A stretch of DNA of 64,000 nucleotides from Antedon mediterranea. Taxonomy: Eukaryota; Animalia; Echinodermata. Under the pieces are notes generated by a model, which was not told the origin of the DNA, made no database searches, and was given only the letters and a program-made list of their open reading frames with translations. This document shows positions 8,660-63,722 of the stretch, piece after piece. The stretch spans positions 14,790,948 through 14,854,947 of the forward strand of contig NC_092673.1 of assembly GCF_964355755.1 (NCBI RefSeq), read 5' to 3'. The stretch's first letter is position 1, and each line of letters opens with the position of its first letter. The translations under genes were made by a program, and so were the position numbers.

Positions 8660-8980
8660 TTTATCTCTTAGTTTTAAATATAGATATCTTAGTTTTAAAT
8701 AGAGATATCTCTATTAATAGAGATATCTCTGTTAACAGAGATATCTCCATTTAAAACTAAGATATCTCTATTAAAAACTAAGATATCTCTAATTAAAACT
8801 AAGATATCTTAGTTTTTAATAATAGAGATATCTCTATTTATAGAGATCTCGATTAATAGAGATATCTCTATTAAAAACTAAGATATCTTAGTTTTAAATA
8901 GAGATATCTTAGTTTTTAATAGAGATACCTTAGTTTTAAATAGAGATATGTCTATTAATTAGTTTTAAAGATATCTTTAT
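8660..8980. repeat. AT-rich palindromic minisatellite built from AGATATCT and TTAGTTTT/AAAACTAA units
   Basis: Repeated AGAGATATCTCT and AGATATCTTAGTTTTAA in both orientations. Confidence 0.8.
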
Positions 8981-10941
8981 TTCTGAATAAATGACAGCTT
9001 GGCGCGCCATACCCTACTGTTAGATATATAAACACATAATATACAAATAAACTTTATTAGTGACAGTTGCAACGTTTTAATTAATAATCATAAAAAATAT
9101 AAACGTTGTAGTGATGTATCGTTACAAAGTTTACAATTTCAATCTACTATAACAGAGACAGTTTTAATAATGTATTAAATCGCAAATGTTTTGCTTTATT
9201 TAGTGGTATGTTATTTATGGTTTATGGTTTTATGGTTTTAAATTTATATAGCGCAAAATACAAATATAGTCTCTATGCGCTGTTTAGCACAAGTGTGAAA
9301 ATGAAAAAATGTTGATGTAAAATAAACCATGAAATAGCCTAAAAACCGAATAAATTGACCAAGACAACAGAAAAAGTCCGAAAACGGAATCTCACATCAC
9401 CTATCACCACACTGTTTCACTAACTTGTCAAGACATGTGTCATAGTGATGTGAGCATCTGACTATCCTGCCTAACAAACAATAAAATTAATAAAATGTAT
9501 ATTTATAGGCCTATAAAACATGAAACAATATTTCGTTACTAAAAGTAGAGCAGTTAATGCCATGAGGTGTGCATGAAACTTGGCACAACATTTCTTTGAT
9601 GTATAAAGATTCAAAATATCGGAGGTGCCAAAGTGTCCTATGTCCGGTATGGCGGCCATCTTGATTTCAAAATGGCCACCACAAAAAAAAAAATGTTCAT
9701 ATCTTGGTAACTATACACATTAGAGAATTAACTGGTCTCAAATTGTTCACAAACTATATATTTCTATTTGCTCTAATAAAAAATTTCGTCCAAAAATGAC
9801 TAGAAATGACATTTCTTTCAGTTTGACCATTGACCTCATATTTGTATATTATCTCTATAACTACTGGTCATTTTCAATCGATTTTGGTGTCATTTTGTTC
9901 AGAATAAATACATTTATATTTGTAGTAATGAAACGTTTTCACATAAAATGACCGGAAATACAATTTATGACCGTTGACACCAATTATGAACACACTGTAT
10001 GTGGTTTACATTGGTATAAATGCACCTAATTTGACTACATAAATCATATTGTCTATTTATTCGTTTATGAAAACGACAATGTATTATCCTGCGATACGTA
10101 CATTTGAAATCACAAGTTTTTTTACGCTGGAATTACTATGTATTCGAGAACCATGTGTGGAGAGGGCGCAATCTTGAGAAGACGTACCTGGGAAACTACT
10201 GACGTGAGTCCATGCTAACATTAATAATATAATTATAAATCCATATAATAATGATTTAAAAAGTAATACCGACGTGTATTTATTTGAACAAACCACATGG
10301 GCTTTATTTTCGTCACGAATAAATACGGTACGGTACGAATGTACGCCTAAAATGTCTACGAAAAATCAATCTAAAAAAAGGATCATGGTTGAAATTACTG
10401 CAAGTCAGAACTACATGTACTAAATGTAATCAATTGCAGACATTTATAAGGAGGTTGTGGCCTATTAATTAATTATTAATATCACAGGCGACAGACTTGG
10501 GGCTAGAAGGACTAAACCACGTCTTAATAATTATAATCTATCAAATAATTACTAAAAAGTTAAAATCGTTTTGTTCATGTTCGGATTTAAAATATAAAGT
10601 TATACATCACCAAAATGTATCTAATTCATCACAATTAATCGAAGATATCTAGTATGAACACAAGTTAAAGTTGTTTAGCATATTCTAAAATATATACGCG
10701 GGTGATGACGCTTTTTTTCTTTTTCCACTGCAGGACATATCACTCCTTCAAAGCTTTCCATTTCTCTCTTTTTCTATTCTCAGTTGCTTTTATATTTGCT
10801 CAGGTTATCTCTCATCACATCTTTTATTGCCAAACCGTAATCCTGCTTGTCCATCTATTGTCATGGAGTTTTGCAACGTGGCCTGCTCATCTCTACTTAT
10901 TTTTAGCAATAGCTTGAAGAAGATCTCGTTTTTTTTATCTT

Positions 10942-16745: not shown

Positions 16746-17521
16746 ATACTATATCCTTTCATCTTTATTCTCCCTATACCTACACTGGTTCTAAGTCGTA
16801 CATCTTACTATACTATTTCCTTTCATCCTCATTCTCCCTATACGTACCTACACTGGTTCTAAGTCGTACATCTTACTATACTATTTCCTTTCATCTTCAT
16901 TCTCCCTATACCTACACTGGTTCTAAGTCGTACATCTTACTATACTATTTCCTTTCATCTTCATTCTCCCTATACCTACACTGGTTCTAAGTCGTACATC
17001 TTACTATACTATTTCCTTTCATCTTTATTCTCCCTATACCTACACTGGTTCTAAGTCGTACATCTTACTATACTATTTCCTTTCATCCTCATTCTCCCTA
17101 TACCTACACTGGTTCTAAGTCGTACATCTTACTATACTATTTCCTTTCATCCTCATTCTCCCTATACCTACACTGGTTCTAAGTCGTACATCTTACTATA
17201 CTATTTCCTTTCATCTACATTCTCCCTATACCTACACTGGTTCTAAGTCGTACATCTTACTATACTATTTTCTTTCATCTTCATTCTCCCTATAACTACA
17301 CTGGTTCTAAGTCGTACATCTTACTATACTATTTCCTTTCATCTTCATTCTCCCTATACCTACACTGGTTCTAAGTCGTACATCTTACTATACTATTTCC
17401 TTTCATCTTCATTCTCCCTATACCTACACTGGTTCTAAGTCGTACATCTTACTATACTATTTCCTTTCATCTTCATTCTCCCTATACCTACACTGGTTCT
17501 AAGTCGTACATCTTACTATAC
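16745..17521. repeat. 64-bp tandem satellite, about 12 copies
   Basis: Unit TATACTATTTCCTTTCATCTTCATTCTCCCTATACCTACACTGGTTCTAAGTCGTACATCTTAC, directly abutting the 80-bp array. Confidence 0.97.
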
Positions 17522-19207: not shown

Positions 19208-20428
19208 CTACATGTCTGAACGTTCGGTGCTCTTCATTAGCATGATCAACTTAGTAACCGGTTTCTTAGCATTGATACCATCTGCAAATCTTATGTCAAC
19301 AACCCTAACAAGGTCATCTTTCCCTGGATAAACTTTACTGACTTCTGCCATTTTCCAACTACCACGTTTCTTGTTCTCACCAAGTACTATGTCACTTTCC
19401 ATTACATTCTCCATTGATTTCTGCCATTTAAGTCTTGGTGAGAGCTTATGGATACACTCCATCCATCGGTGCCAGAAACCATTCACCATAGAGTTACAAA
19501 TTTCTCTCCGTTTTCTCAAATTTCCATGGAATTCTTCACACGGTACTTTCGGACACTGTAAATCACCTCTTCCAATCAGGAAATGATTAGGAGTCAACGG
19601 CGGATGATCCATAGGCAGTGATGACTTGGCCGTCAAAGGTCGACTATTGATAAGACCAGATATCTGACAGAACACCGTCTCCCATTCAACAAATGTTATG
19701 TTGTGGAATCGTAGGAACCCTGGTCCATCGATGACTTTCTTCATATCGTCAATGTTTCCTCCTCTTGAAACAATATCTATAGTGTTCTGGTCTGATGGTA
19801 CAAAGGCAATATCTTTGATCGGGTCAAATTCAGAAGTGATCTCACGGTATGCAACATACGATCGGAAAGATTTAGATTGACCTCTCAGCCAACTGATGGC
19901 AGTCATACTGTCTGTCCAAATCTTTGAATAAACTATGTCAAACCTCAAAGCATTCTTTACAGTGAGCATCAGCCTTGAAAGCAGCAGAATTGCTTGAAGT
20001 TCTTTCCTGGGGATGCTTGATTGTTTAAGTGGTGTGAGTCTGGCTCGGGCGCACACAAACGACAAATAAGCTTCAGTTGACTCTTCATGTGACCACCTTA
20101 GCCAAACTCCGATACCCATAGCATCTTCTGAAGCATCACTTGCACCATGCAGAGATACTTTTGGTAATGGTCTTTTCCCTCTAAATGGCTCTGGAATAAG
20201 ACATCTTGGAATTTCTATGTCACTTGCTTTTTCAAGGTCTCTATTGATTTCACTGAGAATAGCACAAAGTTCACCTCTCTGGTTAAGTGGTGTATCCCAA
20301 TCAATGTTTAGTTGCCACAGTTTTTGTAACAGTGTTTTCGGTCGGACAAGGATACCGGAAAGCATACCGAATACGTCATAGTAAGAAGCGGTTTGTTTCA
20401 GAATGCTACGTTTAGTTGGGATTAGACC
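19208..20428 (-). pseudogene. BEL/Pao RNase H region fused to the integrase C-terminus (integrase core deleted)
   Basis: PTKRSIL...YDVFG, HGASDASEDA, SIPRKELQA, WTDS and NTIDIVSRG run to GPGFL, which is followed directly by ITFVEWETV...INSRPLT...LTPNHFLIG. The HHCC and DDE core is missing. Confidence 0.9.
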
Positions 20429-23380
20429 TTAAATTAGTTTTACCTCTTTGACCTTTAGAGTGTCGTTCACAAGGTCCCACTTTGTTCCCAAAGCTGTTGC
20501 AGCAGTGGCGTCTTCTGATTCATCACACATATTCCTAACGTTGGATTGCCATTTCCTGATATTGAAGTTTCCTTTCTTCAGAGTCTCAATGAGTTTAGAC
20601 TTTAAGTTGTCAGCCTCATTAGCATCAGTAACTGATTTATTCAAATCATCCATGTAAAACTGGTCAGTAACAATTCTTTCTAATTGTTTATCACCGGGTG
20701 CATGCTCAGATACTATATGCCTCAAAGTCACAATAGCCGCAGTTGGTGATGGCTTGTCACCAAATGTAACAGTCGTCAACTCGTACACTTGAATTGGATG
20801 GTTAGGATTCTCCCTGAACACACATCGATGAAAGCGGGCATCATCAGAACTGATTTTAATAGCCTGGAACATCTTACTAATGTCGGCAATTATACCAACT
20901 TCGTTTTCTCGGAATCGTAGGGCAACATCAAAAAGATCTGTATTAACATTTTCTCCTTTATATAAATAATCATTAAGAGAATGGCCTTGAAATCTTGCCT
21001 TCCCATCATATACCACTCTCACAGGTGTTGTTTTAGATTCTTTGGTTACGGCAAAGTGTGGTAAAAACCACATCTTCCTTCCAGCCTCTCTATCTCTTTG
21101 TAGCTCTGCTTCTGTCACTCGACGAGAGACACCTCTTTTCAGTTGATCTCTCATTTGTTCGCAATACACTTCCCATTCTATGCTTCTATTCTCAAATTGC
21201 TTTTCTAGGCTCTTCAGTCTCTTCACAGCATACCCATAGTTATCTGGAAGGTCATTTGGTGCCCTTTTCCAAGGCAATCTAATTTCATAAGTTCCATTTG
21301 GCAGTTGTTTCACACTCTGATCAATTGCTTCCGTTGCCTTGCGATTTGTTAGATGTTCAGAGCATTTGCACTTCTTTGGTTCTAAACCCATTGTCTCAAT
21401 GCCAAGAAAATCTTCCATTGGTCCAACTGCAGACACATTAACATAGTTGAAGAGTGCTGATGTGGTGAGTTGTCCTCTTTGGATAAACCATCCAAAAGGA
21501 CATTTCACGGCTACAGGTTCATTGATACATTCACCTCGGAGGTACTCTTCCCAAATCATTAAGTGTGTGTTATCAACACCAAGCAGTACATCAATAGTTG
21601 GGTATGGAGCAACTTGTAAATCAATTTCATTTAGATGACTGTATTGTTTAAGCTGTTCTTTGTATACTATAGGAGCATCTCCGCAGGGTTCGTCTATTTC
21701 TGTGACGGTGAGTGGACAAGACCATGTACCATTTACGTCTTCAATGTAGCAATTCAGCAATCGTAGTTTCTTAGTAATTTTCTTACCACCAACCAGACTC
21801 AGATCGTGTTTTTGATAAACATCTTGATTAGTAAGTGGAATGAGTCCCGATCTCAGAAGTGTCGCTTGGCTTCCACCATCCAATAAGATACGCACTAGAC
21901 GGCGGGTTTTGCCACATCTCAGGTACCCCATAACAGTAGGTAAAGTCACTTGTAATTTACTTTCTCCATTGTGGGTGACCATGCCTGCCTGCTTAACAAC
22001 TGTGGTTGGATCCGCTGGTTGAAATGGTTGAGCATTGCAATTAAGATTGGGTTGATCCTTTCTTTCATAAAAGACAGGACAAACAGCCGGGAAGTGAAGG
22101 TTACTTCCACAAGATGGAGTTCCACAAGGTGCGGCAAATTGACAGGAATTCTTATCATATGGAGGTTTACCAGCAGAGCAATTGTTGTGACCACATCTAA
22201 AACAGATTCTGTTCTTTTTCATCACTTCATATTTCTCCTTTTGAGACAAACTTCGAAACTTGTTACAACTCTTTAAGCAATGAGTATTCGCAGTTGGATG
22301 CAGTGCACACTTGGGATTTCTATTGTAGTCTGACTTGTATCCTTCTGCAGATGACACTACAGCAGCATTTGAAGCCTTCTTTGACGATGAAGATGATTCA
22401 GTTTCAGTCATGGGCCTAGCTTTCTCAAGCAACAATAATTGGCTGTACAGCCATTTAACCAAGCCAGTGAGAGAATGACCTGTGTCGTTGTCCCTAACGC
22501 TTTTATAGTAAGCTATTCTGTGTTCTTCTGGTAACCTCTGTTTTATTTGGCTCAGCATGATTTTGCTGTTCAATTCTCCAGATAAACCAATAGTTTCCGC
22601 TCTGGTTTCAAACGTTTGAAGGGTTTGGACAAAACGACTCATGGCTGGAATGTTGATCTTGTCCTTACTTTCATAGGACTTTAAATTCTCTAGATCCTTC
22701 AACAGACTATCAACCACTCTGTCTTTGTCTCCGTAGCGTTCATCTAACACTTCCCAAGCTCTAGCCACATCGATACATCCTTTAACCATGTTTCTTTCTT
22801 TGCTGTTAATCATAGATTCAGTTAGCTGGTAGAAACATTCAATCTCAGTTAGATTAGTTGCACAATGTGTAAATAATTCTTTAAATCTTTTGTAATCCCG
22901 GATGTTGCCATTAAATGTAGGATACTTCATCTTTGCCATGGTAGGCGTTAACCTTGCCATAGCAGGTCGAGGTGTAGGTGAACTGAATGCAGGCGGCGAG
23001 GCAACCGTACCAGCAGGCTGCGTTGAGGCTGATGTTTGAAGAGGAGTTGTTGGAGTTGAGAATGGTACATCGACTGTAGATTGTGAGTGGCGCAGGGTAA
23101 TCTCCCGTTTTGCACATACCAACTTTTGAAGGAAATCCATCTCACATTCTGACATCCATTTCTCTTCCGTTTCAAATTCTCCCTGGTCTTCAATTACATC
23201 AATCAGTTCAGAGTGTTTTAACTCAACTTTTCTGAACTGTTCCTCCGCCTTGATAATGTAAGTTTTTAAAACATCTGGTTCGCAATTTTCTTTAAGTAGT
23301 GATTCTATCATGGACAGAGTCCTTGTTAACTGACCTTTGCTGTTCCGTCTGGTAAGCTTCAGTTTGTTTAAGTCTGCCAT
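20429..23380 (-). CDS. BEL/Pao Gag-protease-reverse transcriptase polyprotein (N-terminal part)
   Basis: ATG at 23380. Gag Cys/His knuckles (CFRCGHNNC...CGTPSCGSNLH), aspartic protease LLDGGSQAT, RT motifs FLPHFAV, ADISKMFQ, TFGDKPSP and YMDD. Frameshifted near 20430. Confidence 0.95.
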   Translation of the reverse strand: MADLNKLKLTRRNSKGQLTRTLSMIESLLKENCEPDVLKTYIIKAEEQFRKVELKHSELIDVIEDQGEFETEEKWMSECEMDFLQKLVCAKREITLRHSQSTVDVPFSTPTTPLQTSASTQPAGTVASPPAFSSPTPRPAMARLTPTMAKMKYPTFNGNIRDYKRFKELFTHCATNLTEIECFYQLTESMINSKERNMVKGCIDVARAWEVLDERYGDKDRVVDSLLKDLENLKSYESKDKINIPAMSRFVQTLQTFETRAETIGLSGELNSKIMLSQIKQRLPEEHRIAYYKSVRDNDTGHSLTGLVKWLYSQLLLLEKARPMTETESSSSSKKASNAAVVSSAEGYKSDYNRNPKCALHPTANTHCLKSCNKFRSLSQKEKYEVMKKNRICFRCGHNNCSAGKPPYDKNSCQFAAPCGTPSCGSNLHFPAVCPVFYERKDQPNLNCNAQPFQPADPTTVVKQAGMVTHNGESKLQVTLPTVMGYLRCGKTRRLVRILLDGGSQATLLRSGLIPLTNQDVYQKHDLSLVGGKKITKKLRLLNCYIEDVNGTWSCPLTVTEIDEPCGDAPIVYKEQLKQYSHLNEIDLQVAPYPTIDVLLGVDNTHLMIWEEYLRGECINEPVAVKCPFGWFIQRGQLTTSALFNYVNVSAVGPMEDFLGIETMGLEPKKCKCSEHLTNRKATEAIDQSVKQLPNGTYEIRLPWKRAPNDLPDNYGYAVKRLKSLEKQFENRSIEWEVYCEQMRDQLKRGVSRRVTEAELQRDREAGRKMWFLPHFAVTKESKTTPVRVVYDGKARFQGHSLNDYLYKGENVNTDLFDVALRFRENEVGIIADISKMFQAIKISSDDARFHRCVFRENPNHPIQVYELTTVTFGDKPSPTAAIVTLRHIVSEHAPGDKQLERIVTDQFYMDDLNKSVTDANEADNLKSKLIETLKKGNFNIRKWQSNVRNMCDESEDATAATALGTKWDLVNDTLKVKEVKLI

Positions 23381-48599: not shown

Positions 48600-50869
48600 T
48601 TACGCTTCATCTTTTGCTGTGTAGTTCCATGCCTTTCCGCAGAATCGGTGTGCGTCGCAACACAAAGCGTTCGTACATCTTACGATGAATAATCTCCTCT
48701 CCCCGTTTTCGAGATCTACGCTTCGAAAGACCGGTTCGTTTTTTCTAACCTGTCGCTCTTCTTCGGCGGTCGACACCTTCACCGTGGAACAGCAACTGCC
48801 ACTGAACAAATTCCACCCTCCGCAGAGCTGCAGCTCCTTCCGGGGCTGGTGCGTCGGAATCTTTTCCAAAGTATCTTTGATCTCCTTCAACCGATGCAAT
48901 ATGCTCGTTCGGCAGTCCCCTGCTTCCGCGTTCCAAACGATTACGCTCAAAACGTTGCTCTTGTCGAGTTGGCAAAATTTTTTCAGCTCTCGGATCAAGT
49001 GCTCGACTTCCACGGTCGGATGGATGCACAAATGCGACAGCGGATGATAGAAAACGCCTCCGTGTTTCAGGTGGTAAGGCGTCTGTCTGTAGCATCCGAG
49101 GGCGGCGCAACTCTTTTTGAATCTGTGAGAGTTCGTCTCGTTTTTGCCCTTTCGAACGACGTCCCGGACCTCGATCGCTTCGTCGTCCTTCAGTTCGTCG
49201 ACGACTCGACAAAATTCTTTTACGCAATGGTCGGCCGCCGTATTGCTGTCTCCGATCCTCAGGGCTATGTCGATCATGACCTGTTCCAGTCGAGACACGA
49301 ATCTTTCGACGCCGGGCCTCGTCATTCCTGTGGTGCTCACCCTCCCGTCGGCATGGAGACACGCATACCTTTTCTTCTTGTCCGTCAGCAGCAAGCCGCG
49401 AAGCGTCTCCCTGTGTTTGAACCTTTGAAAGCTTCCTTCACCCAAGACTCGGGCGAATTGCTCTTCCAGCTCCTGTCTCCCGCCTGGAACTATGTCCAAA
49501 AACAACGAGTCGGTGTCGCCGTACAGCACCCGAGCACCGTTTTCTTCGGCGCAATTTTTTAGCGCGTTCAGTTGTTCCTTGCACTTTTCCGTCACGTGGT
49601 TGTAAAGGCTTTTCTTGCCAGACGTGCACAGACATCCGACGCATGCGTTGGCCGCTTGTTTGTACGCGGCGGAGTTCTGGGGAGTGATGTTTTTTCCTTC
49701 TCTGGCCGACACCAGTCTTTTCATGACGGACGGAAGCAGACCTTCTCGTACTTCGGCGTCGACGAAAGAGCCGTCTTCGAGAGCCGTCGACTCGTCCACG
49801 TTTTTGTCGATGATGAACCTCGGATAGCAAGACTGAAAGTCGTACACGTCGACGTCTCTGTGAATGCCGGACACGGTGTCCAGCACCAGGCCGCCTCTGC
49901 ACGTTTCGTCTTCGTTGACGCTTCCTTTGGGCTTCGGGTCCGCATTGCTCCTCGGAAACACCACACGCTGACGCTGCGCTTCTCTGCACAGCACCGACGA
50001 AAGGACGCCGGTCGACGATCCGTTGGGGAACTTTCCCACTATTCTGGACAAGTTCGTCTCGATTTCGACCAATTTTTTCGCTTCCACCTCTGACACGTAG
50101 CGTTCCAGCACGCAAACGTCGTCGTCTAGCTTCTTCGCCGACAAGCTCGCCGCTAGCTCGTGACAAGATTCGTAACCGACGTAATCGTAGACGGAGTCGT
50201 TGTCGCCGCCCGCCGGCGACCGTACGTGTTTCAAAGTGTCTAAGCACACGGGGAACCCGTCAACGGCAAGGGGTACCTCGCACACCCGACATCTGGCGAC
50301 GATGCTGTCCTTGACCCGACCACCGTGATACACGAACACGTCGGCAGATTCGATCGACTTTGCGATTTCCGACAGCGTGTCGATCTCCGAATTTTTGCCA
50401 TGCAGTCTCTTTCCGTCGGACAGCATCGCCGAAATTATTCGACCGTTCACGTCCCACCTGAGAACTACGCACAACACCGACAGTCGCACCGGGTGAACGT
50501 TCTGTCGTTCCAAGTGGATCTGCTCGTCGTACGTCAAGCTTTCGACGTTGCCGTCTTCGTCTTCGGAGTAACTGTGCCAAGCGCATCCGTGAACCCCGAC
50601 CGCGCACTGAGCGTCCAGGTCGCCCACGGACAAGGGGAGGTTGCCGAAGAGGTTGTCGACCTTGATGCCGTTCCTTTCGTCGGTCGTGAGCCTCCTGTAC
50701 TTCTTGGCGCAAGAAATTGGATCGTCGCCTCTGCGCATGATGCATTCTCCGTCCGTTTCGTCTTCGACGTACGACGTGAATTTCACTTTCCTCGTCTTCA
50801 ACGACAGCCGTAGAGGTACAACTTTCCGTTTATCTTGGAATACTTGACACGTGTCAGATACACGAACAT
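48600..50869 (-). CDS. polB: Family B DNA polymerase (RNA/DNA-primed type), probably frameshifted near the 5' end
   Basis: Region II RGGLVLD...YDFQSCYPRFII..N, region III AYKQAANACVGCL, region I YGDTDSLF, then KKKRYA. The long frame has no upstream ATG. An ATG at 50869 in another frame gives MFVYLTRVKYSKINGKLYLYGC, a plausible true N-terminus. Confidence 0.93.
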
Positions 50870-51609
50870 TGCGACTTTTGATCGGACAAAATTCTGAAGT
50901 CTGGAACTTCGACAGACTGTCTTTTCTTTTTGTATTTCTTTTTCTCCAAAGTCGATGCGAGTTCGTGTTGACCGGTTGCTTTTAGAGACTCGACGAAAGC
51001 TTTGTAACCGGACTCGTCTTGATGCTTCCGAACGTTGTTGAGGAAAAAGTAAACGTTTCTCTGTCTGTCACCGTCGAGGAGGAAATTTGCGTATTCGGGT
51101 TCGTAAATTCTTCGGACGACCATTTGTCTGACGGTGGCCTCCAGATTTATCGTTTCAGCGAACCGGTCGATGCGTTTCAGAAGAACGTTCCTCTCTCGCA
51201 ATCGTTTCTTGTATGTTTGATCGATTTCGTAGTGCGAAAGACGGACCATCGCCGACTTGAAAGAAGAAAAAGGATGATCTTTCTCGAACGGCGTGTTGAA
51301 AGTTGTTTTCGCTCCTTTTCTCAAAGCGGCAACAAGATCGTGGTGGCCGGCGCATTTAAGAGAATCCACGAAAGCTCCGTGAGCGTGTAATTTCGGATAC
51401 CTTCGAATGTCGTCGATGAGATAATACGCCATCCGATTCTCTTTAACCCCTTTCTCTCTGTCCATACGCAGTACAAAGTTCTCGAATTCCTGCGAGTATA
51501 TTTCTCTGACGACCAATGCTTCGAGTACCGCCGACAGGTTCATGGACGTGGCGAGGAGTTTGCGATGTTTCGTCAGCAACGGTTCGCCTTCGAAGTAACT
51601 TTCTTCCAT
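50854..51609 (-). CDS. Tandem CARD-CARD (death-fold) protein
   Basis: Two ~85-aa repeats with the CARD pattern: LLTKHRKLLATSMNLSAVLEALV...AFVDSLKCAGHHDLVAAL and LLKRIDRFAETINLEATVRQMV...AFVESLKATGQHELASTL. Basic tail KKKYKKKR. Confidence 0.8.
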   Translation of the reverse strand: MEESYFEGEPLLTKHRKLLATSMNLSAVLEALVVREIYSQEFENFVLRMDREKGVKENRMAYYLIDDIRRYPKLHAHGAFVDSLKCAGHHDLVAALRKGAKTTFNTPFEKDHPFSSFKSAMVRLSHYEIDQTYKKRLRERNVLLKRIDRFAETINLEATVRQMVVRRIYEPEYANFLLDGDRQRNVYFFLNNVRKHQDESGYKAFVESLKATGQHELASTLEKKKYKKKRQSVEVPDFRILSDQKSQCSCI

Positions 51610-51861: not shown

Positions 51862-53229
51862 ATGGCAGGAGGACTACAAAAAAAACGAGCGAAACGTTGC
51901 AGAAAAATGAACGAAGCGACGAAGATCGATCGTTGCCGTTTGTTTGAACTGCCAACCGAATTGCTGCTGCACATTTTCTCGTTCTTGGACAACACGTCGA
52001 AGTTACAGTTCGCCGATTCGAGTCCCTTCCTGGAGAAACTGTCGGGCGACTTGGAAATCGCCGCCACCGAGGCGACCGTCGAATTGTGCACACGTGAACG
52101 TGGCGGTGCGGCGGACGAGTTTTCTATCTACCGACCCGGAAACGTGAAGATGTGCATTCACCGAAAGTTCAAACCGTTTCTCGAACTGCCTCAGATCTCG
52201 CTGCAGTTTCACTTGGCCAACCTTGTGCTGAAGAACGTGCATTTTAGAAAGGGGACATTGCGTCGCATCTTGGAAGGGATTGTTGTTAACTTAGAGTATT
52301 TGGAATTGGACTCGTGCACCGGCGACGTTTTCCACCCTTCCCCCGAACAACTCGTCCCGGAAGACGGCATACGATATTCGTCGATACATTTGAAAAACAT
52401 GAACGTGCACTTGGACGACGTCCGCGAAACCCTGCTTCCGGATGAGCGTGTCACCCAATACACCTTCTACGTGGTACTGACCGACTGCAAAGTGACGGAG
52501 AAAGATCACGAACAGAACGGTGTGCTGTTTATTACGTACGATGGACGCAGCCACCCGTCCGATGTCGGTCGTTACTTCAACCTTACCGCGGTCTCGTCCG
52601 TGTGGAAAGAAACCGAGCGGTTGAAGGTTCGCCCCTACAAAGCGGGAGGAAGAGACACGGTGTGCATGCACCGTGTCAACTTGATCAGTTTTCAGGCGGC
52701 CGTAGACCATTTCGCCGAATCCTCGAACGAAACCTCCCTAGAACTTTCGTTCGACAGCTGCCTTGAGGAACGATTCGGCATGCTCGTGGGTATGCGGTTG
52801 GTGTGCTGGGAATCTTTGACGACGTTGTTTCTGATAGATTCGGTGGCGGAGGAAGACTTTCTTGGCGTTGTCATGTCGCACCACACGAACATAAACTCGA
52901 TAACGTTAAAAAGTTGCTGCGGCGATCCTTTCGGCGAGGTGGACACGCATCCCAACACGGCACTGAGGCAATTGAACCTGATCGATATGGTCGTCGACGA
53001 GGCCGGCATGGTCAAATTCATGACACCGATCGTCGACGTCGTCAGGTTAAATTTAGAAATGTGCGTGTTCGACGAACGTCTTTTCGCAAAACTATTGCAC
53101 GAAACATCCGGCTATGGTTGGTTCGACTGCGAGTACGTCCGCGAGCCAGGCATGTTGGAACCCGTTGAGATGTTTCTTGAAACGGTCAAAGAAACCGATT
53201 TATTATGCAAAAAAATTAAAATAAAATGA
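51862..53229 (+). CDS. F-box/LRR-like protein, copy 1 (455 aa)
   Basis: F-box LFELPTELLLHIFSFLD. LRR-like units LEYLELDSC, LTTLFLIDS, INSITLKSC and LRQLNLIDM. Basic N-terminus KKRAKR. Confidence 0.85.
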   Translation: MAGGLQKKRAKRCRKMNEATKIDRCRLFELPTELLLHIFSFLDNTSKLQFADSSPFLEKLSGDLEIAATEATVELCTRERGGAADEFSIYRPGNVKMCIHRKFKPFLELPQISLQFHLANLVLKNVHFRKGTLRRILEGIVVNLEYLELDSCTGDVFHPSPEQLVPEDGIRYSSIHLKNMNVHLDDVRETLLPDERVTQYTFYVVLTDCKVTEKDHEQNGVLFITYDGRSHPSDVGRYFNLTAVSSVWKETERLKVRPYKAGGRDTVCMHRVNLISFQAAVDHFAESSNETSLELSFDSCLEERFGMLVGMRLVCWESLTTLFLIDSVAEEDFLGVVMSHHTNINSITLKSCCGDPFGEVDTHPNTALRQLNLIDMVVDEAGMVKFMTPIVDVVRLNLEMCVFDERLFAKLLHETSGYGWFDCEYVREPGMLEPVEMFLETVKETDLLCKKIKIK

Positions 53230-54347: not shown

Positions 54348-55659
54348 ATGGCAGGAGGACTACAAAAAAAAACGAGCGAAACGTTGCAGACAAAATAACG
54401 AAGCGAAGAAGATCGTTCGTTGCCGTTTGTTTGAACTGCCAACCGAATTGTTGCTGCACATTTTCTCGTTCTTAGACAACACGTCGAAGTTACAGTGGGC
54501 CAATTCGAGTCCCTTCCTTGAGAAACTGTCGGGCGACTTGGAAATCGTTGCCACCGAGGCGGTCGTCGGATTGTGCAGACATCCACGTCGGTTTACGGCG
54601 GACGAGTTTTCTATCCACCGACCCGGAAACGTGTTGATGTGCGTTCACCGAAAGTTTCTTCTCGATCCGCAGCTGACCTCGCCGCAATTTTACTTGGCCA
54701 ACCTTGTGCTGAAGAACGTGCATTTTAGAAAGGGGACATTGCGTCGCATCTTGGAAGGGATTGTGGTTTCCCTAAAGTATTTGGAATTGGACTCTTGCAC
54801 CGGTGACGTTTTCCACCCGTCCCCTGAGCAACTCGTCCCGGAAGACGGCATACGATATTCGTCGATACATTTGAGAAACATGAACGTTCACTTGGACGAC
54901 GTCCGCGAAACCCTGCTTCCGGATGAGCGTGTCACGCAATACACCTTCTACGTGGTACTGACCGACTGCAAAGTGACGGAGGACAATCGAGCAAAGAACG
55001 GTGTGCTGTTGATTACGTACGACGGGCGCAGCAACGCTCCCGATGTCGGTCGTTACTTCAACCTGACCTCGGTCTCGTCCGTGTGGAAAGAAACCGAGCG
55101 GTTGAAGGTTCGCCCCTACAAAGCGGGAGGAAGAGACACGGTGTGCATGCACCGTGTCAACTTGATCAGTTTTCAGGCGGCCGTCGACCATTTAGCCGAA
55201 TCCTTGAACGAAACCTCCCTAGAACTTTCGTTCGACTGCTACGACGAGGAACTATGCGGCATGCTCGAGGGTCTGCGGTTGGTGTGCTGGGACTCTTTGA
55301 CGACGTTGTTTTTGATAGATTCGGTTGCGGAGAAAAATGTTCTTGCCGTTGTCATGTCGCACCACCCGAGCATGAGTGCGATAACGTTGAAACGTTGCAG
55401 CGGCGATCCTTTCGGCGAGGTGAGAACGGTCCCCAACACGGCACTGAGGCAATTGAACCTGATCGATATGGTCGTCGAAGAGGCCGGCATGGTCAAATTC
55501 ATGACACCGATCTTCGAAGTTGTCACCTTAAATTTAGTAGAGTGCAAGTTCGACAAAGAGCTTTACAAAAAACTGTTTTACGAGGCTACCGGCTGCACTT
55601 TTAGAATTAATAAATTTCCAAACTACCAACAATTCGAAACGCAGACATCAAGACGTTAA
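54348..55659 (+). CDS. F-box/LRR-like protein, copy 2; +1 frameshift in the A-run after the start
   Basis: Paralog of 51862-53229. The ATG at 54348 matches copy 1, but the run after CTAC has 9 A (54364-72) against 8 in copy 1. Confidence 0.85.
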
Positions 55660-56479: not shown

Positions 56480-59400
56480 ATGTTCTCTCTCAGTCTCCAG
56501 TCTCCTCATCCACCCAAAGTGGCATACTTGATCGCATCCGACTACAGAGGTTCTTCAAAGTCGACCACGAGCACAGTGTTGTTTCGTAAGATAGCGCAGA
56601 ACAAATTCCACTTTCAACTGTGGTTCAGAACGTCCATCCCGACGGAAATCAGACGAGCAGCGATCGCAGTCGAACTGGAGGACGGAAGAAAGAACTTCGG
56701 CGTCAGAATTTACGACGGCCACTTTTCGTACGACAGACATCTGTACGACAACGGCAAGACGATAGCTTTGAGCGTGATCGAATCGAAACGCCGTCATCGC
56801 ACTCGGATCGAAGTGGCCGGTGAGGAACGAAGGTTACTTCTTGCCACCGCTGCTTTCGGTCAAGGAACGATAGCGACGAGCACTTGTCTGTTTCCGTTGT
56901 GGGAGACGAAACCGTTGTTTTGCGACGAAGACGTACGCGACACCTTCTTTCAAAGGGCAACGTTTCTGAACTCGAGGATAACGGTTACCGACAGGAAGAA
57001 GAAAGTCCCACGCTCAAGCAACGAACAAAGAATGTTACGTCTGATACGTTCCGTTCCGTCGATGATGCTGGTGCGTCTGGGGCACATTCATTTAGACTAG
57101 ACAAAAAGTAGTGAGCCCTCTAGCGGTCATTTGTGATTTCTGAGATTCATCGAAGCGCGACAACATCACCCGGAAATGATGTGAATTAAAAATTTTAATA
57201 GGGTTAAACTCTTTTAACCAATTGAAAGCCTTAAATTATAGTTCCTTATGAATAATTCATGAAAATAATGAAAGCAAGGGTTGAAGAAGCATGTGACTTG
57301 GTTTTTGGAACAGGATAGCAGTTATGATCGTGTCAGGTAATCATTGAATTTGCTCTTCTTTTTGTTAAATTTTATACGGTTTTTATCAATAATAATATTG
57401 TACATTTTTACGAGACCATAAAAAAATTCCTCAATTTTTGAGTAAACGAGTGACTAAATAAAAAGTTACTATGTAATGTAAATATTCGTTTGACAAAAAA
57501 TGGGCATGTTGATATTTTCAGGTATTTTTTAAATGGCGATTGAAATAGGTAAACAAATCACATGTATAACGGTGGTTTGTGCGAAGCTGGGCCTAGCCTT
57601 GATGGTCCAACGCGTACTGTGTGTTAATCAATGCGTATAGATACACACGTAGTCGTTTAGGCCAATTTTTTACATGTTTATTTATTAATATTAGGCCCCA
57701 TTTTCATTTATTTTAATTAATGTACTGAATGTACCACACTTTACAACTCTATATAAATTAGATTTTGTACTTGTATTAAATTCAAACGTTTTATGGGATT
57801 TAAAACATTAAGCTAGGCCTTGTAGTAGGCCTTGGACCACATGTTAGGTTTTTCAGCCTAATTTATCATGCAGTATACCTCTAGCCCATCTTTCAAATAC
57901 ATATTTAAATTAAGATACTTTTTATATTTCTATATTTTTTATAGGATCTGACTCCAGAAAACATTTGCATCACTTGAAAGCGGCTATTTATGGACAGCAT
58001 GTTGACATTCAAAAAAATTTGACCAGCTCTTATTAATTAAATGTCTTTTAAATTAAAGGTTTTCATTATAATGAAATGTACAGTGACAGAAATTTAAATG
58101 ATTCTCATAATTGAGGTTTCTCATAGATTTAATATTGAAGGTAAATAAATAAAGCTGTTTGTTATTCTTGCCTTTAGAAATAAACATGTTGTTAGTACTA
58201 TATTATTAGGCCTAGGCCATTATACAAATTAAAACTAAAAAATACAATAATCATATTTAAGGCCTACACAGCAGTACCTTACTTGATTTGATTTTTTTTC
58301 AAATATTTAATTGATGAAATAAATGAGTTTGACTTTTCAATTAGTTGCCATTTTATTAGTTTCTGTGTGTTTTTATTTATATTCTTAAAATAATTGTATA
58401 CAACAACTTTAAAGTATTGCGAAGAAGTGATCAAATTAAAGTAGGCCTATTTGTATGTTATTGTCACTTAAAATTATGCAGTTAAAGTATTTGATTTTAG
58501 GGTGACAGAAGCGGTTAGGCAAGAAAAGAAATAAATTTGGGAATTTTGTTATGCGGTAAAAACAATTAAACATAATTTACCCCTAATGCATGTAAATGTA
58601 GAAAACATTGCTTATGTTAGCGCGACCGAAACTCGCTACTGGGAATAGAGCCTGCAAAAGCGACGCGTACACACCTACTCGGGCACCGGCGGAGCGCGAT
58701 CGATAGTAAATATACCCGATTTCAAATGATCATAAAATTCTTTTAAAAAATATCAACATTTTGATTTTTTGAGGATTAAAAGTAAAGATATTGAAATTTA
58801 ACATGCTATTTACAAATATGTATTTAAAAATTCGGAAACAATTTTAGCGTGATATTAAAACAAACTTTTTAGAGTTCCGCGATTTCCTACGCAGGATTTG
58901 TTTGTTTTCATTGTTAATGGGCGAATGTTACCTAAACTAGAATCGTTATAAATCTTTTAAATTTGTATTATAAGTAATTTCTTTAGTATTCTTAGTAACA
59001 TCGAATGTCTCTAATTAACTAGCAGTTATTTATACTAACTATTGTTCAATAATAAGCGTGTATGAAGTGAAAATCTATAGTAATAATGTTCTTAGTCAGT
59101 TCGTCTCGCTCGCGTGAAGTCTTCGGGTTTCCCAATACAATTTTCAGCGGTAAGATAGGCTCGCGCTAATGTTTAAATCAAAAGCGCTCTCAAAACACTT
59201 TTTGTCCAAAATTCGCAATATGACGTGAGTGTGGGAAATTCGGTTATATCTGACGTTGGGGCTGCTGCTCGACGCCGATCGCTACCCCGGATTCAAGCAG
59301 TTGTTTCAAAGGTGGCGGCCGTGCGTTCATCAGGGTTCCGAGGTAGGTCTTTACGATCCCATCAACGACGAGCTGTTCCTCGGCGACGGTCGTACCAGCC

Positions 59401-59753
59401 GAGATTCTTCGACCGGGATCGTCTACTGGACGAGCGACAATACCATACGATGCGGCGGCGGCGGCGAACACTTGCCGCCCGAGATCATGGAAGCTTCGTG
59501 CAAAGAGGCGTCGTTGATGGCTCCGCTCTCCATACCGCCTTTCGTAAAGTTTCACCAAAGCGGCAGCTTTGATCCGGATTCGCGTCTGGTGGCGTACGGT
59601 CCGACTAGGGAAATGGAGGAGAAGTTGTTCGACGTCGTGACGGAGACGACTTACTTCGATGTGTTTTCCTACGCCGACGTCTGCCGGGTGTCGACTGCGG
59701 CGGCGGCTGCTTGCAACGTGATCTGTTCGACGATCACCCTGACGAACTTTTGA
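56480..59753 (+). pseudogene. Hypothetical viral gene split by a transposon (56480-57082 plus 59236-59753)
   Basis: CpG-rich coding sequence on both sides of an AT-rich insert. Removing 57083-59235 joins ...SVDDAGASG to EIRLYLTLGLLLDADRY... in frame. One further frameshift near 56990 is needed to link to the 56480 start. Confidence 0.6.
57083..59233. mobile_element. Non-autonomous CAC-terminated DNA transposon (CMC/EnSpm-like) with bipartite asymmetric ends
   Basis: Left end CACATTC-N11-ACAAAAAGT, right end (reverse complement) CACACTC-N21-ACAAAAAGT. 2-bp TSD GG. Host-like AT-rich interior with AGGCCT motifs. Confidence 0.75.
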
Positions 59754-60376
59754 TACTCTTGAGAAAGATTCTTGGAGATGCGTTTGTGATTGACAGAAGT
59801 TGTGAGTTTGTTCTTGTTCAACGTGTAAATCTGAAACTGTCTCATCATTTGACAAAGATCGCCGGCCAGTCCGTTTGACACCAGCATCGAAACAAACTCG
59901 TTTTTATCCATACCGAGACTCTTGTTGAGTTTTTGGTCCAGATAATGGAAGGTGTCGTCGAGCAGTTGCTTGAACCATATAGCGACGCCGTAATAGCTTT
60001 CAATCCCGTTGATCGTGCGTTTGTTTCTCAACTCGCTCAAGTCCACGCTCACTATCGACGCGTACGTTTCGGCCAATATTTCCAAGTCGGTAGGCTCGTC
60101 TTCGGAAGCGGATCGACTGCCAGCCCCGGGGCATCGCTCAAGGTGGTCACGAAGGCCGTCACGTTCTTCGATCGCTTTTTCGAGCTCGTTCCGGAGGTCT
60201 TCGACGACCTTGTGCAACCTGCCGTTCTCGTCGTTGCTGGTCCGCAGTTGCTCGAGCGTTTTTGCATGTTTGCGACTCAACTCTTGAAAGCGGGCGAACC
60301 CGGTGTCTGTGGGAGTGGCATTCTGCCCACTGCTTTCAGGAAAAGGCAATCGATTTAACTGAACCCTCAGAGTCAT
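59669..60376 (-). CDS. Hypothetical viral protein with an N-terminal coiled coil (235 aa)
   Basis: ATG-initiated after an A-rich spacer. Heptad-like stretch LEQLRTSNDENGRLHKVVEDLRNELEKAIEERDGL. Its 3' end overlaps the convergent gene. Confidence 0.7.
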   Translation of the reverse strand: MTLRVQLNRLPFPESSGQNATPTDTGFARFQELSRKHAKTLEQLRTSNDENGRLHKVVEDLRNELEKAIEERDGLRDHLERCPGAGSRSASEDEPTDLEILAETYASIVSVDLSELRNKRTINGIESYYGVAIWFKQLLDDTFHYLDQKLNKSLGMDKNEFVSMLVSNGLAGDLCQMMRQFQIYTLNKNKLTTSVNHKRISKNLSQEYQKFVRVIVEQITLQAAAAAVDTRQTSA

Positions 60377-60524
60377 AATAGTGTGAGGTAATGTTGTTGT
60401 TGGGAGGTTTTTTTTTTGTTTTTTTTTTTAGGGGTGGTTTTTAAGGCTAATATTGTTATCGTATTTCTTATTTGTATCTTTTTTTTTGGTTCTCCGTTTT
60501 GATTTTTTTTTGTTTTTGTTGCAA

Positions 60525-60914
60525 ATGCAAATGCAAATGGAAAGTTGCGTGTACAGATACTTTTCGGAAAACTACAGGGTAGACGACTTTGTAGAAGAAG
60601 ACGTCGATCGTATGGTTTCAAGAGCCACCGATCGTTACGTCGAATGCGTGGACAAACTGAAGGTGTCTCTGACGAGTTTGAGATCGCAGAAAGAGGATGC
60701 TGCCGCAGCTGCTGCCACCGGCGACGTGGTCACTCTCATGACCGCCTCAAACAGAGACGTACTCTCGAGAAGTGGCAGCGATCGCCACGGACCGATTCCG
60801 CCGGCACTCGATCCGTCTGCGGAGATCGTTCCGAGTTGGTTCGAAAATTTTGAGAACGCCGTGCGAGGGAAGAAGACCTGGTTCAGCGTCAACTACAACC
60901 GGAGACCACGATAA
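60525..60914 (+). CDS. Hypothetical viral protein (~129 aa)
   Basis: ATG cluster at 60525/31/37, CpG-rich codons, and AATAAA at about 60944. Confidence 0.65.
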   Translation: MQMQMESCVYRYFSENYRVDDFVEEDVDRMVSRATDRYVECVDKLKVSLTSLRSQKEDAAAAAATGDVVTLMTASNRDVLSRSGSDRHGPIPPALDPSAEIVPSWFENFENAVRGKKTWFSVNYNRRPR

Positions 60915-61025
60915 GTGTTTGTTTTTTTGGGGGAGAAAAACCCAATAAAATGGCGGGGTGAAAAAAAAAAACAAAAAACGAAAAATAGTTTATTTATTTT
61001 TTTTATTTTTGCAAAAAAAAATTAA

Positions 61026-63097
61026 TCATTTTCGGGGACGAAATTGTTTTCGATAGCGGTTATTTTCTTTGCGTGCCTCCCAGTAGTTGTAGTTGTAATA
61101 ATTTTCTGGGACAGAGTAGCCTGCGTCTACCGTCGTCGTTTTCGAATGGATCGGCGTTGGGGATCGAGGAGCAAGATGTTGTCGATTGAGGTCCTTGGCG
61201 GAGGCGGCTCGGCTTTCCAAAAGATCGGCGAGTTTCTCGAGAGTGCTACTCTCGTCGGCTTTCTGTCTCTTGTAGGGACGCTCATCCCTTTGCTCCGTTT
61301 CGTGTTCTCTTTTGTTGTCGGAACCGTAATATCTGCCTCTTTTCCGGGGAGAGAGGGAAGAGTCCCTTCGTCGTTCGCCGCTTATGCGGCTGTGTCTTCT
61401 CTTCCTCGAACGAAAACATCAAAAACAACATAATATAGCTATTAACAAGTCATTAAGACGGGTTACTAAATTGTGTGTTGAAGGCGATTTCACTGACAGG
61501 CTTAAGATTCTAAATTTACCAGATATGGTTCAAAGAATGAAATTTCATAGTATAATTTTTGTAGTTAAGTGTTTGCATAATTTAATTGATTTTGATATAT
61601 TTTAATACCTTACAATTAATTCTCGGTATCCAGAGTCCCTCACCTTTAAACACATGTATGCTAGAACTAATGCATTTAAATACTCCCTGTTTGTTAATTT
61701 CCCTCGAATATGGGAATGTATCCCGCATGAAGTTCGTAACAAAGTCCTGTTTAACTTTGGGGGGTTTAGAAGGGATTTGAAAAAATGTATTACTGATATC
61801 GAATTCATCTAGACTATCATTGTGTTTTTATGTCTATTGCGTTTTTCGTACTATTAGTTGGGAAAGCCACTCGACAGTGCAGTTCTTTTGAATTGATCCA
61901 CTTTTGGTTACCCGCAGGTGCTGATAGTACTTTTGTTCTGTTTTGTTGAATGATGCCGTACCTTGTTTATGATTTTTGTATGTTACCTGGAAATTGAATA
62001 AAATAAAAAAATAAAAAATAAAATAACGACCTCGCTCGTTTTCGCCGAGTCGCTCTTCGACGCTTTTGAAGTAATCTTTGCAAACGCTGACAGCGTTCTC
62101 GTTGGTTTTCGCCAGCAAGTTTCTGTGAACGTCCAGTATCTGTTTAATCGAGGAGGCTCCGGTGATGTGAACGTCTTCTTGCATCTTCGGAAATCGCTGC
62201 TTTAAAAGATTGCTTATTTGGTTCTTGAAAGCCCTGTCCGACGTGGCGTCGTCGACGAGTTCGTTGGCGGCCCTGAACGTAGCCGCCACGTCCACTTCCA
62301 CGTGCTCGTTTTCGTTCGGGGCCGTCAACTTTTCGGTGAACTCTTCGAAGTCGCTCATCCTTTTCTTGTACTCCGGCCCCTGTTTGTCCTGCGCGATCTT
62401 GTGTACGTTCAGAATGAAATCTCCGAACTGAACCCTCCAGAGATCCAACTTTTCTTTGAACGTGTCTAGCTTCTGTTTGTTGCACTCGTCCTTGCTCTTG
62501 AGCATACACAGTATGGTGTTGAGATTGTCCTGCGAAACGGTGCTTGCAAGTTTTTCGATCGTCTCCACCTTTTTGCAGAATGTTCTCGTCAGACGCCATC
62601 ACGTTCTCCGCAGGCCCGTTTTCTGCTCCACGCTTATACCCGAATCTCTCTCTGGCAACTCTAAGCGCCATTTCTTCGTCATCGCAGTAAACGGCCACCG
62701 TTCCTTTCCTCTGGCCTGTCTCGACCAGAGAAACTTCTACGCACTTTGTGTGATCGGCTCGCCTGTAGCTGAGAGACAGGCAGTTCAGATTCCGAGAGAA
62801 CGGGCTGTTGAGAAAGTTCTCGTCCTCGATCTCCAACAGGACGGCGACGGCCCCGCCGTTCTCCGTGTTGGATCCGGGGTACGTGCGATCTCTCCACCAT
62901 TTCCGGACGGTGCCGATGCCGTCCGGGGAATGCACGCCTTTGCCGTTCTCGCGTCCCTTCACGTGCTTCCAACGAACCGGGAGCTTCTCGAGATTCCATC
63001 GTTTCACCACGTCGGGAGTCACGTCGTACTCTTCGTCCCGGGCCTCGAGTTTGACGTCCGTAACCACGTAGCCGACCGCGAACCTCTTTATCTTCAT
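61026..63097 (-). pseudogene. Herpes-type capsid maturation protease (assemblin)-scaffold precursor, disrupted by a LINE and a +1 frameshift
   Basis: AVGYVV, LPVRWKH (His), IGTV, CLSLSY (Ser) and EVSLVETGQRKGTVAVY (cf. HCMV LPLNINH, GLSLSS, HVALCSVGRRRGTLAVY). Removing one A at 62570-74 and bases 61414-62029 gives a 484-aa ORF. Confidence 0.85.
61414..62024 (+). mobile_element. 5'-truncated CR1/L2-like LINE inserted in the scaffold gene
   Basis: RT C-terminal remnants (RRVTKL...DRLKILNLP; RTNAFKYSLF...RIWECIP), an (AAAT)n/A-rich tail, and a 5-bp TSD AACGA (61409-13 and 62025-29). Confidence 0.85.
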
Positions 63098-63612
63098 CGC
63101 AGCCTCTTCAACTCCTTCTTTGCGTTCTTCTTTGCGTTCTTCTTTCTCCTGACGTATTTCATCGCTAAGGTACACCTTTCGGCTTTAAGGCGAGCGAGAT
63201 CCTCTTTGTCGTCTTCTTCTATCCTGCAAGGTCTGATGCTCAACGTTTTCTCCTTCAGGTCCACCAACGCCGTAATGTTTTCCGACATGCCGATGAGTAT
63301 CACAGTTAACCAGTCTATGTGTCTGACGTCGACGAACACCACTCCGTCTGCATGTTTCTTGTCGTCGACGATCGACCTGCAGAAAGACGACATGCGGCAA
63401 GCTATCAACGCCACGGTGGGATGGAGATCGGACCTCTGGAACGAAGAATGGTCGTTTGGGATTCCTAATCCGGCTATCTCGCAATTGCACCGAATGCCGC
63501 GAGAGAAGTGCACGGCTCCTGCAAGGAGAGAACAGTCGATGCAACAGCGCATGCCCCCTCGACACGAATCCAACAAAATCCGTAATTCAAGTTCCGATAT
63601 GGTACTCTCCAT
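63094..63612 (-). CDS. Hypothetical Cys-rich viral protein (172 aa) with a basic C-terminus
   Basis: ATG 63612 (MESTISELEL...). CCIDC and CNC motifs. Its TGA overlaps the protease ATG (ATGA, 63094-97). Confidence 0.7.
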   Translation of the reverse strand: MESTISELELRILLDSCRGGMRCCIDCSLLAGAVHFSRGIRCNCEIAGLGIPNDHSSFQRSDLHPTVALIACRMSSFCRSIVDDKKHADGVVFVDVRHIDWLTVILIGMSENITALVDLKEKTLSIRPCRIEEDDKEDLARLKAERCTLAMKYVRRKKNAKKNAKKELKRLR

Positions 63613-63634
63613 CGTGTGAAATTTTGTTTTTTTA

Positions 63635-63722
63635 CGTGTGTGTGCGGGTGTGTTTGTGTGTGCAGGGTGTGTTCGTGCGTGCAGGGTGTGTTTGTGTGGG
63701 TGTGGTGTGAGTGGGTGCCTGC

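Follow-up and report, generated by a model that had tools for sequence, protein, structure and literature searches.

A protease-scaffold gene in three colinear pieces

The window analysed here is a stretch of 64,000 nucleotides of contig NC_092673.1 from the Antedon mediterranea assembly GCF_964355755.1 (positions 14,790,948 to 14,854,947). On its minus strand, at 61029-63097, lies a protease-scaffold gene of the kind known from herpesviruses, present as three colinear pieces of one gene in a copy that has been broken twice. Piece 1 (62576..63097, with the start ATG at 63097) encodes a serine protease domain of predicted assemblin fold (approximately residues 1-155) and a short linker, and piece 2 (62030..62568) encodes the conserved scaffold body, which is helical by sequence pattern and shows 45% identity to residues 169-343 of P0001, an unbroken relative of 456 amino acids (aa). 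When P0001 was aligned to the window by tblastn, three colinear pieces were obtained in three frames, with identities of 69% (63091-62570), 45% (62574-62038) and 32% (61343-61071). Summed, the pieces amount to 484 codons, inside the range of 447-515 aa observed for P0001-P0008. A first-pass annotation of the window had joined three open reading frames (ORFs) into one 484-aa frame and regarded it as a single precursor of the UL26/UL80 style, and both proposals were borne out by the alignment of P0001 and by the fused full-length relatives. The bounds of its ORFs had to be revised: the gene starts at 63097 and not at 63175, and the third piece is longer than 61026-61220, its frame being open from ~61418. 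All motifs that it had named (EVSLV, GQRKGT, NVMAS, SRKRRHS, PRKRGR, PYKRQK, TVDAG and a 31-residue tail) were found.

Intact relatives, which had been proposed as a check on this reading, could also be identified. A search with the first 175 residues returned two matches among 311 candidates, P0001 (69% identity) and P0002 (491 aa, 47%); a profile search yielded eight matches (P0001-P0008), and a search of 50%-identity representatives yielded 23, adding a distant group of ~480-650 aa. Protease and scaffold share one reading frame in P0001-P0008, P0121 and P0122. A metagenome scan yielded one locus, L001, in which the gene, encoding P0122, occupies 5827-7260 of the plus strand, and scans of viral contigs gave no locus. 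No named protein was present among the protease relatives looked up, no named alloherpesvirus protein appeared in searches with the protease or with the DNA polymerase described below, and no published description of this protease family was found in the literature.

Predicted fold and catalytic residues of the protease

The protease domain was modelled using nine aligned sequences, and the resulting model predicted an assemblin fold nearest to that of herpesvirus proteases, as the first-pass annotation had expected. Its mean predicted local distance difference test (pLDDT) score was 67.5, with residues 154-174 below 50, and a single-sequence model reached a pLDDT of only 42. In a Foldseek comparison with the PDB, all 29 rows listed were herpesvirus proteases (best E 4e-5, template modelling score ~0.5, probability 1.00). 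In a VIA structural search, the protease of varicella-zoster virus (VZV) scored Z 9.9 (root-mean-square deviation 3.2, 126 aligned), followed by those of human cytomegalovirus (HCMV; 9.2) and of Kaposi's sarcoma-associated herpesvirus (7.2); an unrelated MCE domain (Z 6.0) and T4 gp21 (Z 5.8) scored lower. In BFVD, the highest rows belonged to herpesviruses of abalone, mammals and ranids, and phage proteins appeared at rank 6 and below. At the sequence level, the best Pfam match was PF25720 (Herpes_ORF28; 24.1 bits, E 2.5e-5, under the 40-bit cut-off), covering profile positions 92-229 of 233 with the N-terminal part missing, and PF00716 was matched at E 0.05. PF25720 was also matched at E < 0.01 in 14 of the 15 relatives scanned, one of which (P0133, 45 bits) passes the cut-off. 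PHROG gave no significant match for the protease or its relatives, Atlas gave no usable match for the protease, and PDB sequences searched with a full-length profile yielded chance matches only.

Three residues are predicted to form the active-site triad of this modelled domain: His45 (62963..62965), the nucleophile Ser108 (62774..62776) and Glu121 (62735..62737), with Arg130 (62708..62710) as the predicted oxyanion-loop Arg, all encoded on the minus strand. His45, Ser108 and Arg130 are invariant in all 18 aligned sequences, a selection from the longer matches. The spacings are 13 residues from Ser to Glu and 9 from Glu to Arg, and the order and spacing of the four residues are those of the assemblin superfamily. 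Glu121 aligns with the Glu of PDB entry 1ied, titled as the H157E mutant of HCMV protease, in a sequence match of this region that is weak alone (E 1.4); no published activity data for this mutant were found in the literature.

The C-terminal end of the domain may be another point of difference from the orthoherpesviral enzymes. The structural match to herpesvirus chains stops at chain residues 178-197, the model has low confidence past residue 153, and the ORF28 profile itself ends close to where the window match ends (229 of 233). The protease of pseudorabies virus (PrV), as described in PMC4498786, extends to residue 225 and has its dimer helices near the end. Judged from the model, the clade of the window seems to be devoid of the C-terminal dimer helices, which could be replaced by helices of the scaffold. 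This early end of the structural match, together with the compactness of the modelled domain, is the one phage-like trait that persists.

Predicted cleavage sites in the precursor

A predicted maturation (M) site, TVDA/GY (61116..61133, minus strand), lies 31 residues before the end of the protein. The corresponding motif, [VI]-x-A-[SGC], was present within the last 50 residues of all full-length relatives (10 out of 10 near and 13 out of 13 distant, 23 out of 23 in total), so that the M-site of the first-pass annotation is confirmed as a conserved motif and, as a prediction from sequence, is well supported. A stricter pattern, [VIL]-x-A-small-aromatic, occurred 39 times in the 23 relatives against 1.05 expected from shuffles, a comparison made among non-independent relatives with a pattern that had been chosen after the alignment was seen. 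Strict sites number exactly two in every near relative: the M-site and another in the scaffold. The window shows the same arrangement: VAA/TF falls in piece 2 and TVDA/GY in piece 3, and piece 1 has no strict site. VAA/TF (62275..62289, minus strand) is the sole strict match in piece 2, has an equivalent in 10 out of 10 near relatives and is a candidate second cut.

The release (R) site has a different distribution. By pattern, a site between the end of the protease and a conserved Met (see below) is found in none of the 10 near relatives versus 10 of the 14 distant ones, and none is found in piece 1 of the window; in PrV, according to PMC4498786, the release site likewise precedes the Met. 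Thus, the near clade seems to have no linker release site before the nested start. Two motifs were considered for this role and rejected. NVMA/S had been annotated as the R-site, a claim that did not hold: V-M-A-S is present in 2 of the 11 clade members (the window and P0005) and absent from the closest relative P0001, and it fails the strict pattern, being without the following aromatic residue typical of the other sites of the family; what is kept is the Met. The A-N-A-S-like linker motif of P0002-P0008 was likewise rejected as a general site, as its P1' residue varies and neither the window nor P0001 has the segment.

A probable nested scaffold gene and other scaffold features

The conserved Met, Met167 of the window (62597..62599, minus strand), lies within NVMA/S, 39 bases past a TATA-like box (62633..62638) that is formed by the codons of Tyr154-Lys155 and is likely an internal promoter; Met167 is likely the start of a nested gene encoding the scaffold only. 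Tyr-Lys is invariant in 18 out of 18 aligned sequences, and a Met 10-19 codons past it was observed in 10 out of 10 near and 13 out of 14 distant relatives (23 out of 24). The Tyr-Lys codons contain the sole TATAA on the minus strand in 62030-63097 and the sole TAT among the six Tyr codons of piece 1. In L001, TATAAA occurs at the same codons, 36 bases before Met174. Within the viral block, a TATA-like word was found within 80 bases of only 3 of 12 other starts checked; therefore, a TATA box is not the rule for genes of the window virus. The conserved Met together with the TATA codons points to a likely start of a nested scaffold gene of the UL26.5 type. Such genes have been published: passages of PMC13030845 describe nested scaffold messages for orthoherpesviruses and for ORF57.5 of anguillid herpesvirus 1 (AngHV-1), and passages of PMC11565193 do so for vertebrate herpesviruses and report a nested transcript of ostreid herpesvirus 1 (OsHV-1) that is ~10 times more abundant than the fusion.

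Two further features of the scaffold are conserved. Three basic clusters, SRKRRHS, PRKRGR and PYKRQK (61260..61409, minus strand), which the first-pass annotation had taken for nuclear localization signals (NLSs), are indeed present, and similar clusters occur in 9 out of 10 near and 13 out of 13 distant relatives (22 out of 23); their role as NLSs is that of candidates. In the tail, an NYW motif (61080..61088, minus strand) is a candidate capsid-protein-binding peptide, a role suggested by PMC4498786. NYW was found near the C-terminus of P0001-P0008 and P0121, and NFW in P0122.

The third triad residue and the oxyanion loop

The Glu at the third triad position, which the first-pass annotation had considered unusual, is present as described. 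Among the 30 family matches examined, 24 span this site, and 23 of them have Glu; the remaining one, P0122, has His. However, His-Ser-Glu has been published for an alloherpesvirus, and the residue can hardly be called unusual: acipenserid herpesvirus 3 (AciHV-3) has H173, S226, E240 and R249, with spacings of 14 and 9 (PMC12031113). An alignment of herpesviruses and phages in the Teratorn paper likewise gives the triad as His-Ser-His/Glu (PMC5601938), and a second paper writes the same.

In a tree of 18 rows, none of them named, P0122 falls inside the clade of the window (support 95/100 for seven rows) on a long branch; P0139 also has a long branch, and the tree provides no placement among known families. 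The His codon of P0122 is CAT, two changes from either Glu codon, and this His likely represents an independent Glu-to-His change. The occurrence of His within a Glu clade indicates that the third residue is labile and therefore a poor marker of descent.

The herpes-type GxRxGT oxyanion loop had been described as kept, which is only partly the case. The window reads G-Q-R-K versus G-R-R-R in orthoherpesviruses, with one Arg instead of two, and GxRxGT varies in the relatives. According to passages of PMC4498786, orthoherpesviral assemblins have a Ser-His-His triad and two consecutive conserved Arg in this loop; the window has Glu121 at the third position of the Ser-His-His (S21) triad and lacks the pair of Arg.

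Two breaks and copies without them

The first break of the window copy is a change of frame (62568..62576, minus strand), seen near 62570 in the tblastn alignment of P0001. The second is an inserted high-copy repeat that resembles the 3' fragment of a long interspersed nuclear element (LINE; ~61414..62029, plus strand). It is bounded by a 5-base target duplication (61409-13 and 62025-29), its 3' end is A-rich on the plus strand, and contig depth over it is tens to hundreds of times that of the flanks. Thus, the insert and duplication that the first-pass annotation had removed to restore the frame are real, and its putative identity as a 5'-truncated LINE was drawn from the A-rich tail, the duplication, the copy number and a reading frame that resembles the ends of ORF2 in CR1/L2-type elements. 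No library match was obtained for the repeat in a scan that covered one 81-aa frame on the minus strand. With the two breaks, this copy is incapable of making the fusion or the full-length scaffold.

Twenty public runs contain part of 59600-63700, and eight of them contain at least half of its words (three studies and two organism codes; one study may be the source of the window). Contigs were examined for four of the 20 runs. All four lack the frame break at ~62570, and in three of them (X3, X6 and X8) one contig crosses the place of the insert without the repeat, the contigs of X1 stopping at both edges. None of the runs was listed as RNA, although X3 may be an RNA run. Copies free of the breaks therefore exist, and the frame break could either be peculiar to the window copy or stem from an assembly error.

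Genomic setting and neighboring genes

The last 17 kb of the window (~46.9-64 kb) form a gene-dense block with a GC content of 0.46-0.47 and an observed/expected CpG ratio of 1.4-1.5. The DNA before it is AT-rich (GC 0.33-0.34, CpG ratio ~0.7) and contains a satellite and a Pao-type retrotransposon. This CpG-rich block, carrying a family B DNA polymerase, a CARD gene and F-box genes beside CpG-poorer host-like DNA, suggests a viral origin, and the virus-like stretch is likely integrated in an animal genome.

Directly upstream of the protease is a Cys-containing ORF of 172 aa (63094..63612, minus strand), the stop of which overlaps the protease start. It is homologous to the ORF that precedes the protease in L001 (5262-5792, plus strand; 172-176 aa), with 21% identity and E 4e-7, and has no Pfam, PHROG or Atlas match. 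Some alloherpesviruses have a UL31-like nuclear egress gene beside the protease, according to PMC13030845; the upstream ORF may correspond to it by position, as a candidate likeness only. The DNA polymerase (48600-50738, minus strand) has 712 aa and is unusually short and divergent for a herpes-like virus. It has one close relative (P0009, 738 aa, 48%) and 109 weak matches at 24-34%, of which the named ones are of archaeal or bacterial type. No named herpesvirus was present among these 110 matches (391-1246 aa, from 7995 candidates), and no herpesvirus polymerase among its 54 PDB matches.

Next to the polymerase is an ORF of 251 aa with a CARD domain (50854-51609, minus strand; E 3e-6, plus a weaker second CARD-like match), which may act as a decoy in host death-domain signalling. 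An F-box gene follows in two copies on the plus strand (51862-53229 and ~54350-55659), 89% identical over 1253 bases; the ORF of the second copy starts later and is without the F-box. In L001, two ORFs lie directly downstream of the protease on the plus strand (7284-8210, 308 aa, and 8229-11621, 1130 aa). Neither has a Pfam or PHROG match and the longer one has no PDB sequence match; by size and place they could be the triplex and major capsid proteins. Neither an RNA polymerase gene nor a short-tower capsid protein of the mirusvirus kind was seen in the ~17 kb of the window or in L001 (16 kb), stretches that make up little of a mirusvirus-like genome.

Several other observations concern the DNA around and within this block. 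In the host-like DNA (1-46400), AGGCCT is enriched 8- to 15-fold, a kind of enrichment that we take to be typical of echinoderm genomes, and the viral block has no such enrichment. A 2-kb AT-rich, host-like stretch within the block (57100-59100, GC 0.30) has AGGCCT five times against 0.1 expected and is probably a second host insertion. An 80-base satellite of ~73 copies (98% matches) is immediately followed by an array with 12 copies of a 64-base unit (together 10942-17521), and the Pao/BEL-type retrotransposon (19208-23380, minus strand) has two long ORFs with DUF1759, reverse transcriptase, peptidase A17 and DUF5641 domains.

Comparison with known systems and alternative explanations

The gene was compared with the known protease-scaffold systems. 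Alloherpesviral precursors (ORF28 of ictalurid herpesvirus 1, AngHV-1 ORF57, AciHV-3 AFA98, ORF24 of salmonid herpesvirus 1 and the Teratorn protease; PF25720) are alike in the assemblin-scaffold fusion, in being the best Pfam match and in the adjoining conserved small gene; according to PMC3203048, ORF28 and the protease-and-scaffolding protein of AngHV-1 are homologues. AciHV-3 and the window both have His-Ser-Glu with an Arg nine residues past Glu, the Ser-Glu spacing being 14 and 13, respectively. On the other hand, alloherpesviral precursors are ~590-720 aa versus 447-515 aa here, the window is below the PF25720 cut-off, structural matches to alloherpesviruses in BFVD show 12-18% identity and the window polymerase is not recognizably alloherpesviral. 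The orthoherpesviral precursors (UL26/UL26.5 of herpes simplex virus, UL80/UL80.5 of HCMV and pUL26 of PrV; S21) share the predicted fold, the fusion, the V-x-A/small M-site, the basic clusters and, likely, the nested gene, and the tail after the M-site has 31 residues here versus 37 in PrV. They are unlike the window in their His third residue, two Arg and release site before the nested start; in addition, the window shows no match to their C-terminal helices, which form the activating dimer, and PF00716 reaches only E 0.05. Thus, as far as can be read from sequence, the window gene would work like UL26/UL26.5 and belong to the assemblin superfamily, yet it is not an S21 assemblin by triad, loop and R-site, and it is below the ORF28 cut-off. 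Among malacoherpesviruses (OsHV-1 ORF107, 689 aa; abalone herpesvirus K4JX75), the protease was the top BFVD match (E 2.2e-5, 14% identity), and no passage on its triad residue was found in the literature. Divergent herpes-like regions with a DNA polymerase, described in invertebrate assemblies, are also alike, and the window element is possibly among them.

On the basis of these results, we consider it probable that a very divergent herpes-like virus, itself likely integrated in an animal genome, is the source of this broken capsid protease-scaffold gene. In intact form, the gene is predicted to encode a fusion of a His-Ser-Glu serine protease with a scaffold, and an internal TATA promoter likely gives rise to a scaffold-only protein as well. 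Several points weigh against parts of this interpretation. The mean pLDDT of the protease model is 67.5, and cleavage and the nested start are predictions from pattern. The TATA evidence comes from two DNA sequences, and L001 has TAT in 6 of 13 Tyr codons and three TATAA in the gene. The internal VAA/TF motif lies in a helical-looking region, where its conservation may be structural, and it is not in alignment with the internal motif that 12 of 13 members of the distant group carry. In addition, neither in the window nor in L001 was a gene for a capsid protein, terminase or portal identified.

The interpretation of the first-pass annotation, in which NVMA/S is the R-site and the Glu triad is the sign of an evolutionary intermediate linking phage prohead proteases to orthoherpesviral assemblins, appears unlikely. 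NVMA/S fits a minimal V-x-A/S directly past the protease domain and the same four residues recur in P0005, but they are missing in 9 of the 10 near relatives, P0001 included, and the site of the distant relatives precedes the Met (10 of 14), as in PrV. Phage prohead proteases (HK97-type and T4 gp21) belong to the same superfamily and have a compact domain, with Glu third in many according to passages of PMC5601938. The short domain of the window, with a match that ends at herpesvirus residues 178-197, and the phage proteases among the BFVD matches would agree with an intermediate. However, Glu is known from AciHV-3, His recurs inside the clade, and the predicted fold is nearer to herpesvirus proteases than to T4 gp21, whose Z score was only 5.8; there was no significant PHROG match, and the window has a eukaryotic TATA box, basic clusters and a herpes-type M-site. 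Each of the three traits, the protease-scaffold fusion, the Glu triad and the nested scaffold gene, has been described before in herpes-like viruses, and therefore the claim of an intermediate falls.

There is also a small chance that the gene comes from a mirusvirus-like or other duplodnavirus outside Herpesvirales with the same working mode. Mirusviruses encode a capsid maturation protease (PMC10132985 and PMC10827195), although no passage on it was found in PMC12768974, and the absence of named herpesviruses from the 110 polymerase matches and of herpesvirus polymerases from the 54 solved-structure matches would be expected of such a virus. Against this origin, the best Pfam match of the family is the herpesvirus ORF28 (E < 0.01 in 14 of 15 relatives), the top BFVD matches are herpesviral, with several unnamed and none named as mirusvirus, no RNA polymerase gene was seen in either locus and the flanks look like animal DNA. 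We regard it as very improbable that an ordinary alloherpesvirus, Teratorn-like or other, has here integrated into the genome of a fish or amphibian: the window showed no transposase, the ORF28 match has 24 bits against a cut-off of 40, BFVD identity is 12-18% and neither the protease nor the polymerase searches gave a named alloherpesvirus protein, even though the ORF28 match itself, the Glu triad with AciHV-3-like spacing and the small Cys-containing neighbor where alloherpesviruses have a UL31-like gene would all fit. Finally, the virus stretch could have been joined to host DNA by the assembly, with the frame break as a sequencing error. That four out of four runs are without the frame break, which sits in a single-base run, and three out of four without the insert speaks for such an artefact, but the high-copy host repeat with its target duplication lies inside the gene, a host-like stretch of 2 kb is present at 57100-59100, and more than half of the words are present in eight runs from three studies, one of which may have supplied the window; we therefore give this explanation a slim chance. 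Even with an integrated element, the frame break could well be an error.

Proposed mechanism and implications

Returning to the divergent herpes-like virus, the intact gene might work as follows. An abundant scaffold-only form starting at Met167 and a little of the fusion would co-assemble with the capsid protein via the NYW tail, the basic clusters directing both to the nucleus. After closure of the shell, the protease would cut at [VI]-x-A/small-aromatic sites, and the cut at the M-site would release the scaffold from the shell. VAA/TF inside the scaffold would likely be a second cut, because a release site seems to be missing in the clade from the segment that links the protease to the nested start. 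What looks new here is the apparent absence of an R-site before the nested start, the conserved site-like motif in the scaffold and the seeming loss of dimer helices. We tentatively suggest, as a possibility that we consider less than even, that these sequences represent an undescribed, family-level herpes-like lineage integrating in invertebrate genomes, with a capsid maturation unlike that of known herpesviruses: its protease would be without dimer helices and, never freed at a linker site, would remain joined to at least the first 100 scaffold residues, cutting inside the scaffold and at the M-site, and the His third residue, regarded as the hallmark of orthoherpesviruses, would have arisen a second time in this lineage.

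The protease family bears on why orthoherpesviruses use a weak His triad with control by dimerization and on whether release of the protease is needed. At least 24 deeply divergent precursors offer natural contrasts, such as Glu versus His, release site present versus absent and an apparently shortened protease, and the gene can serve to mark a herpes-like lineage that has been poorly sampled and whose hosts are likely invertebrates.

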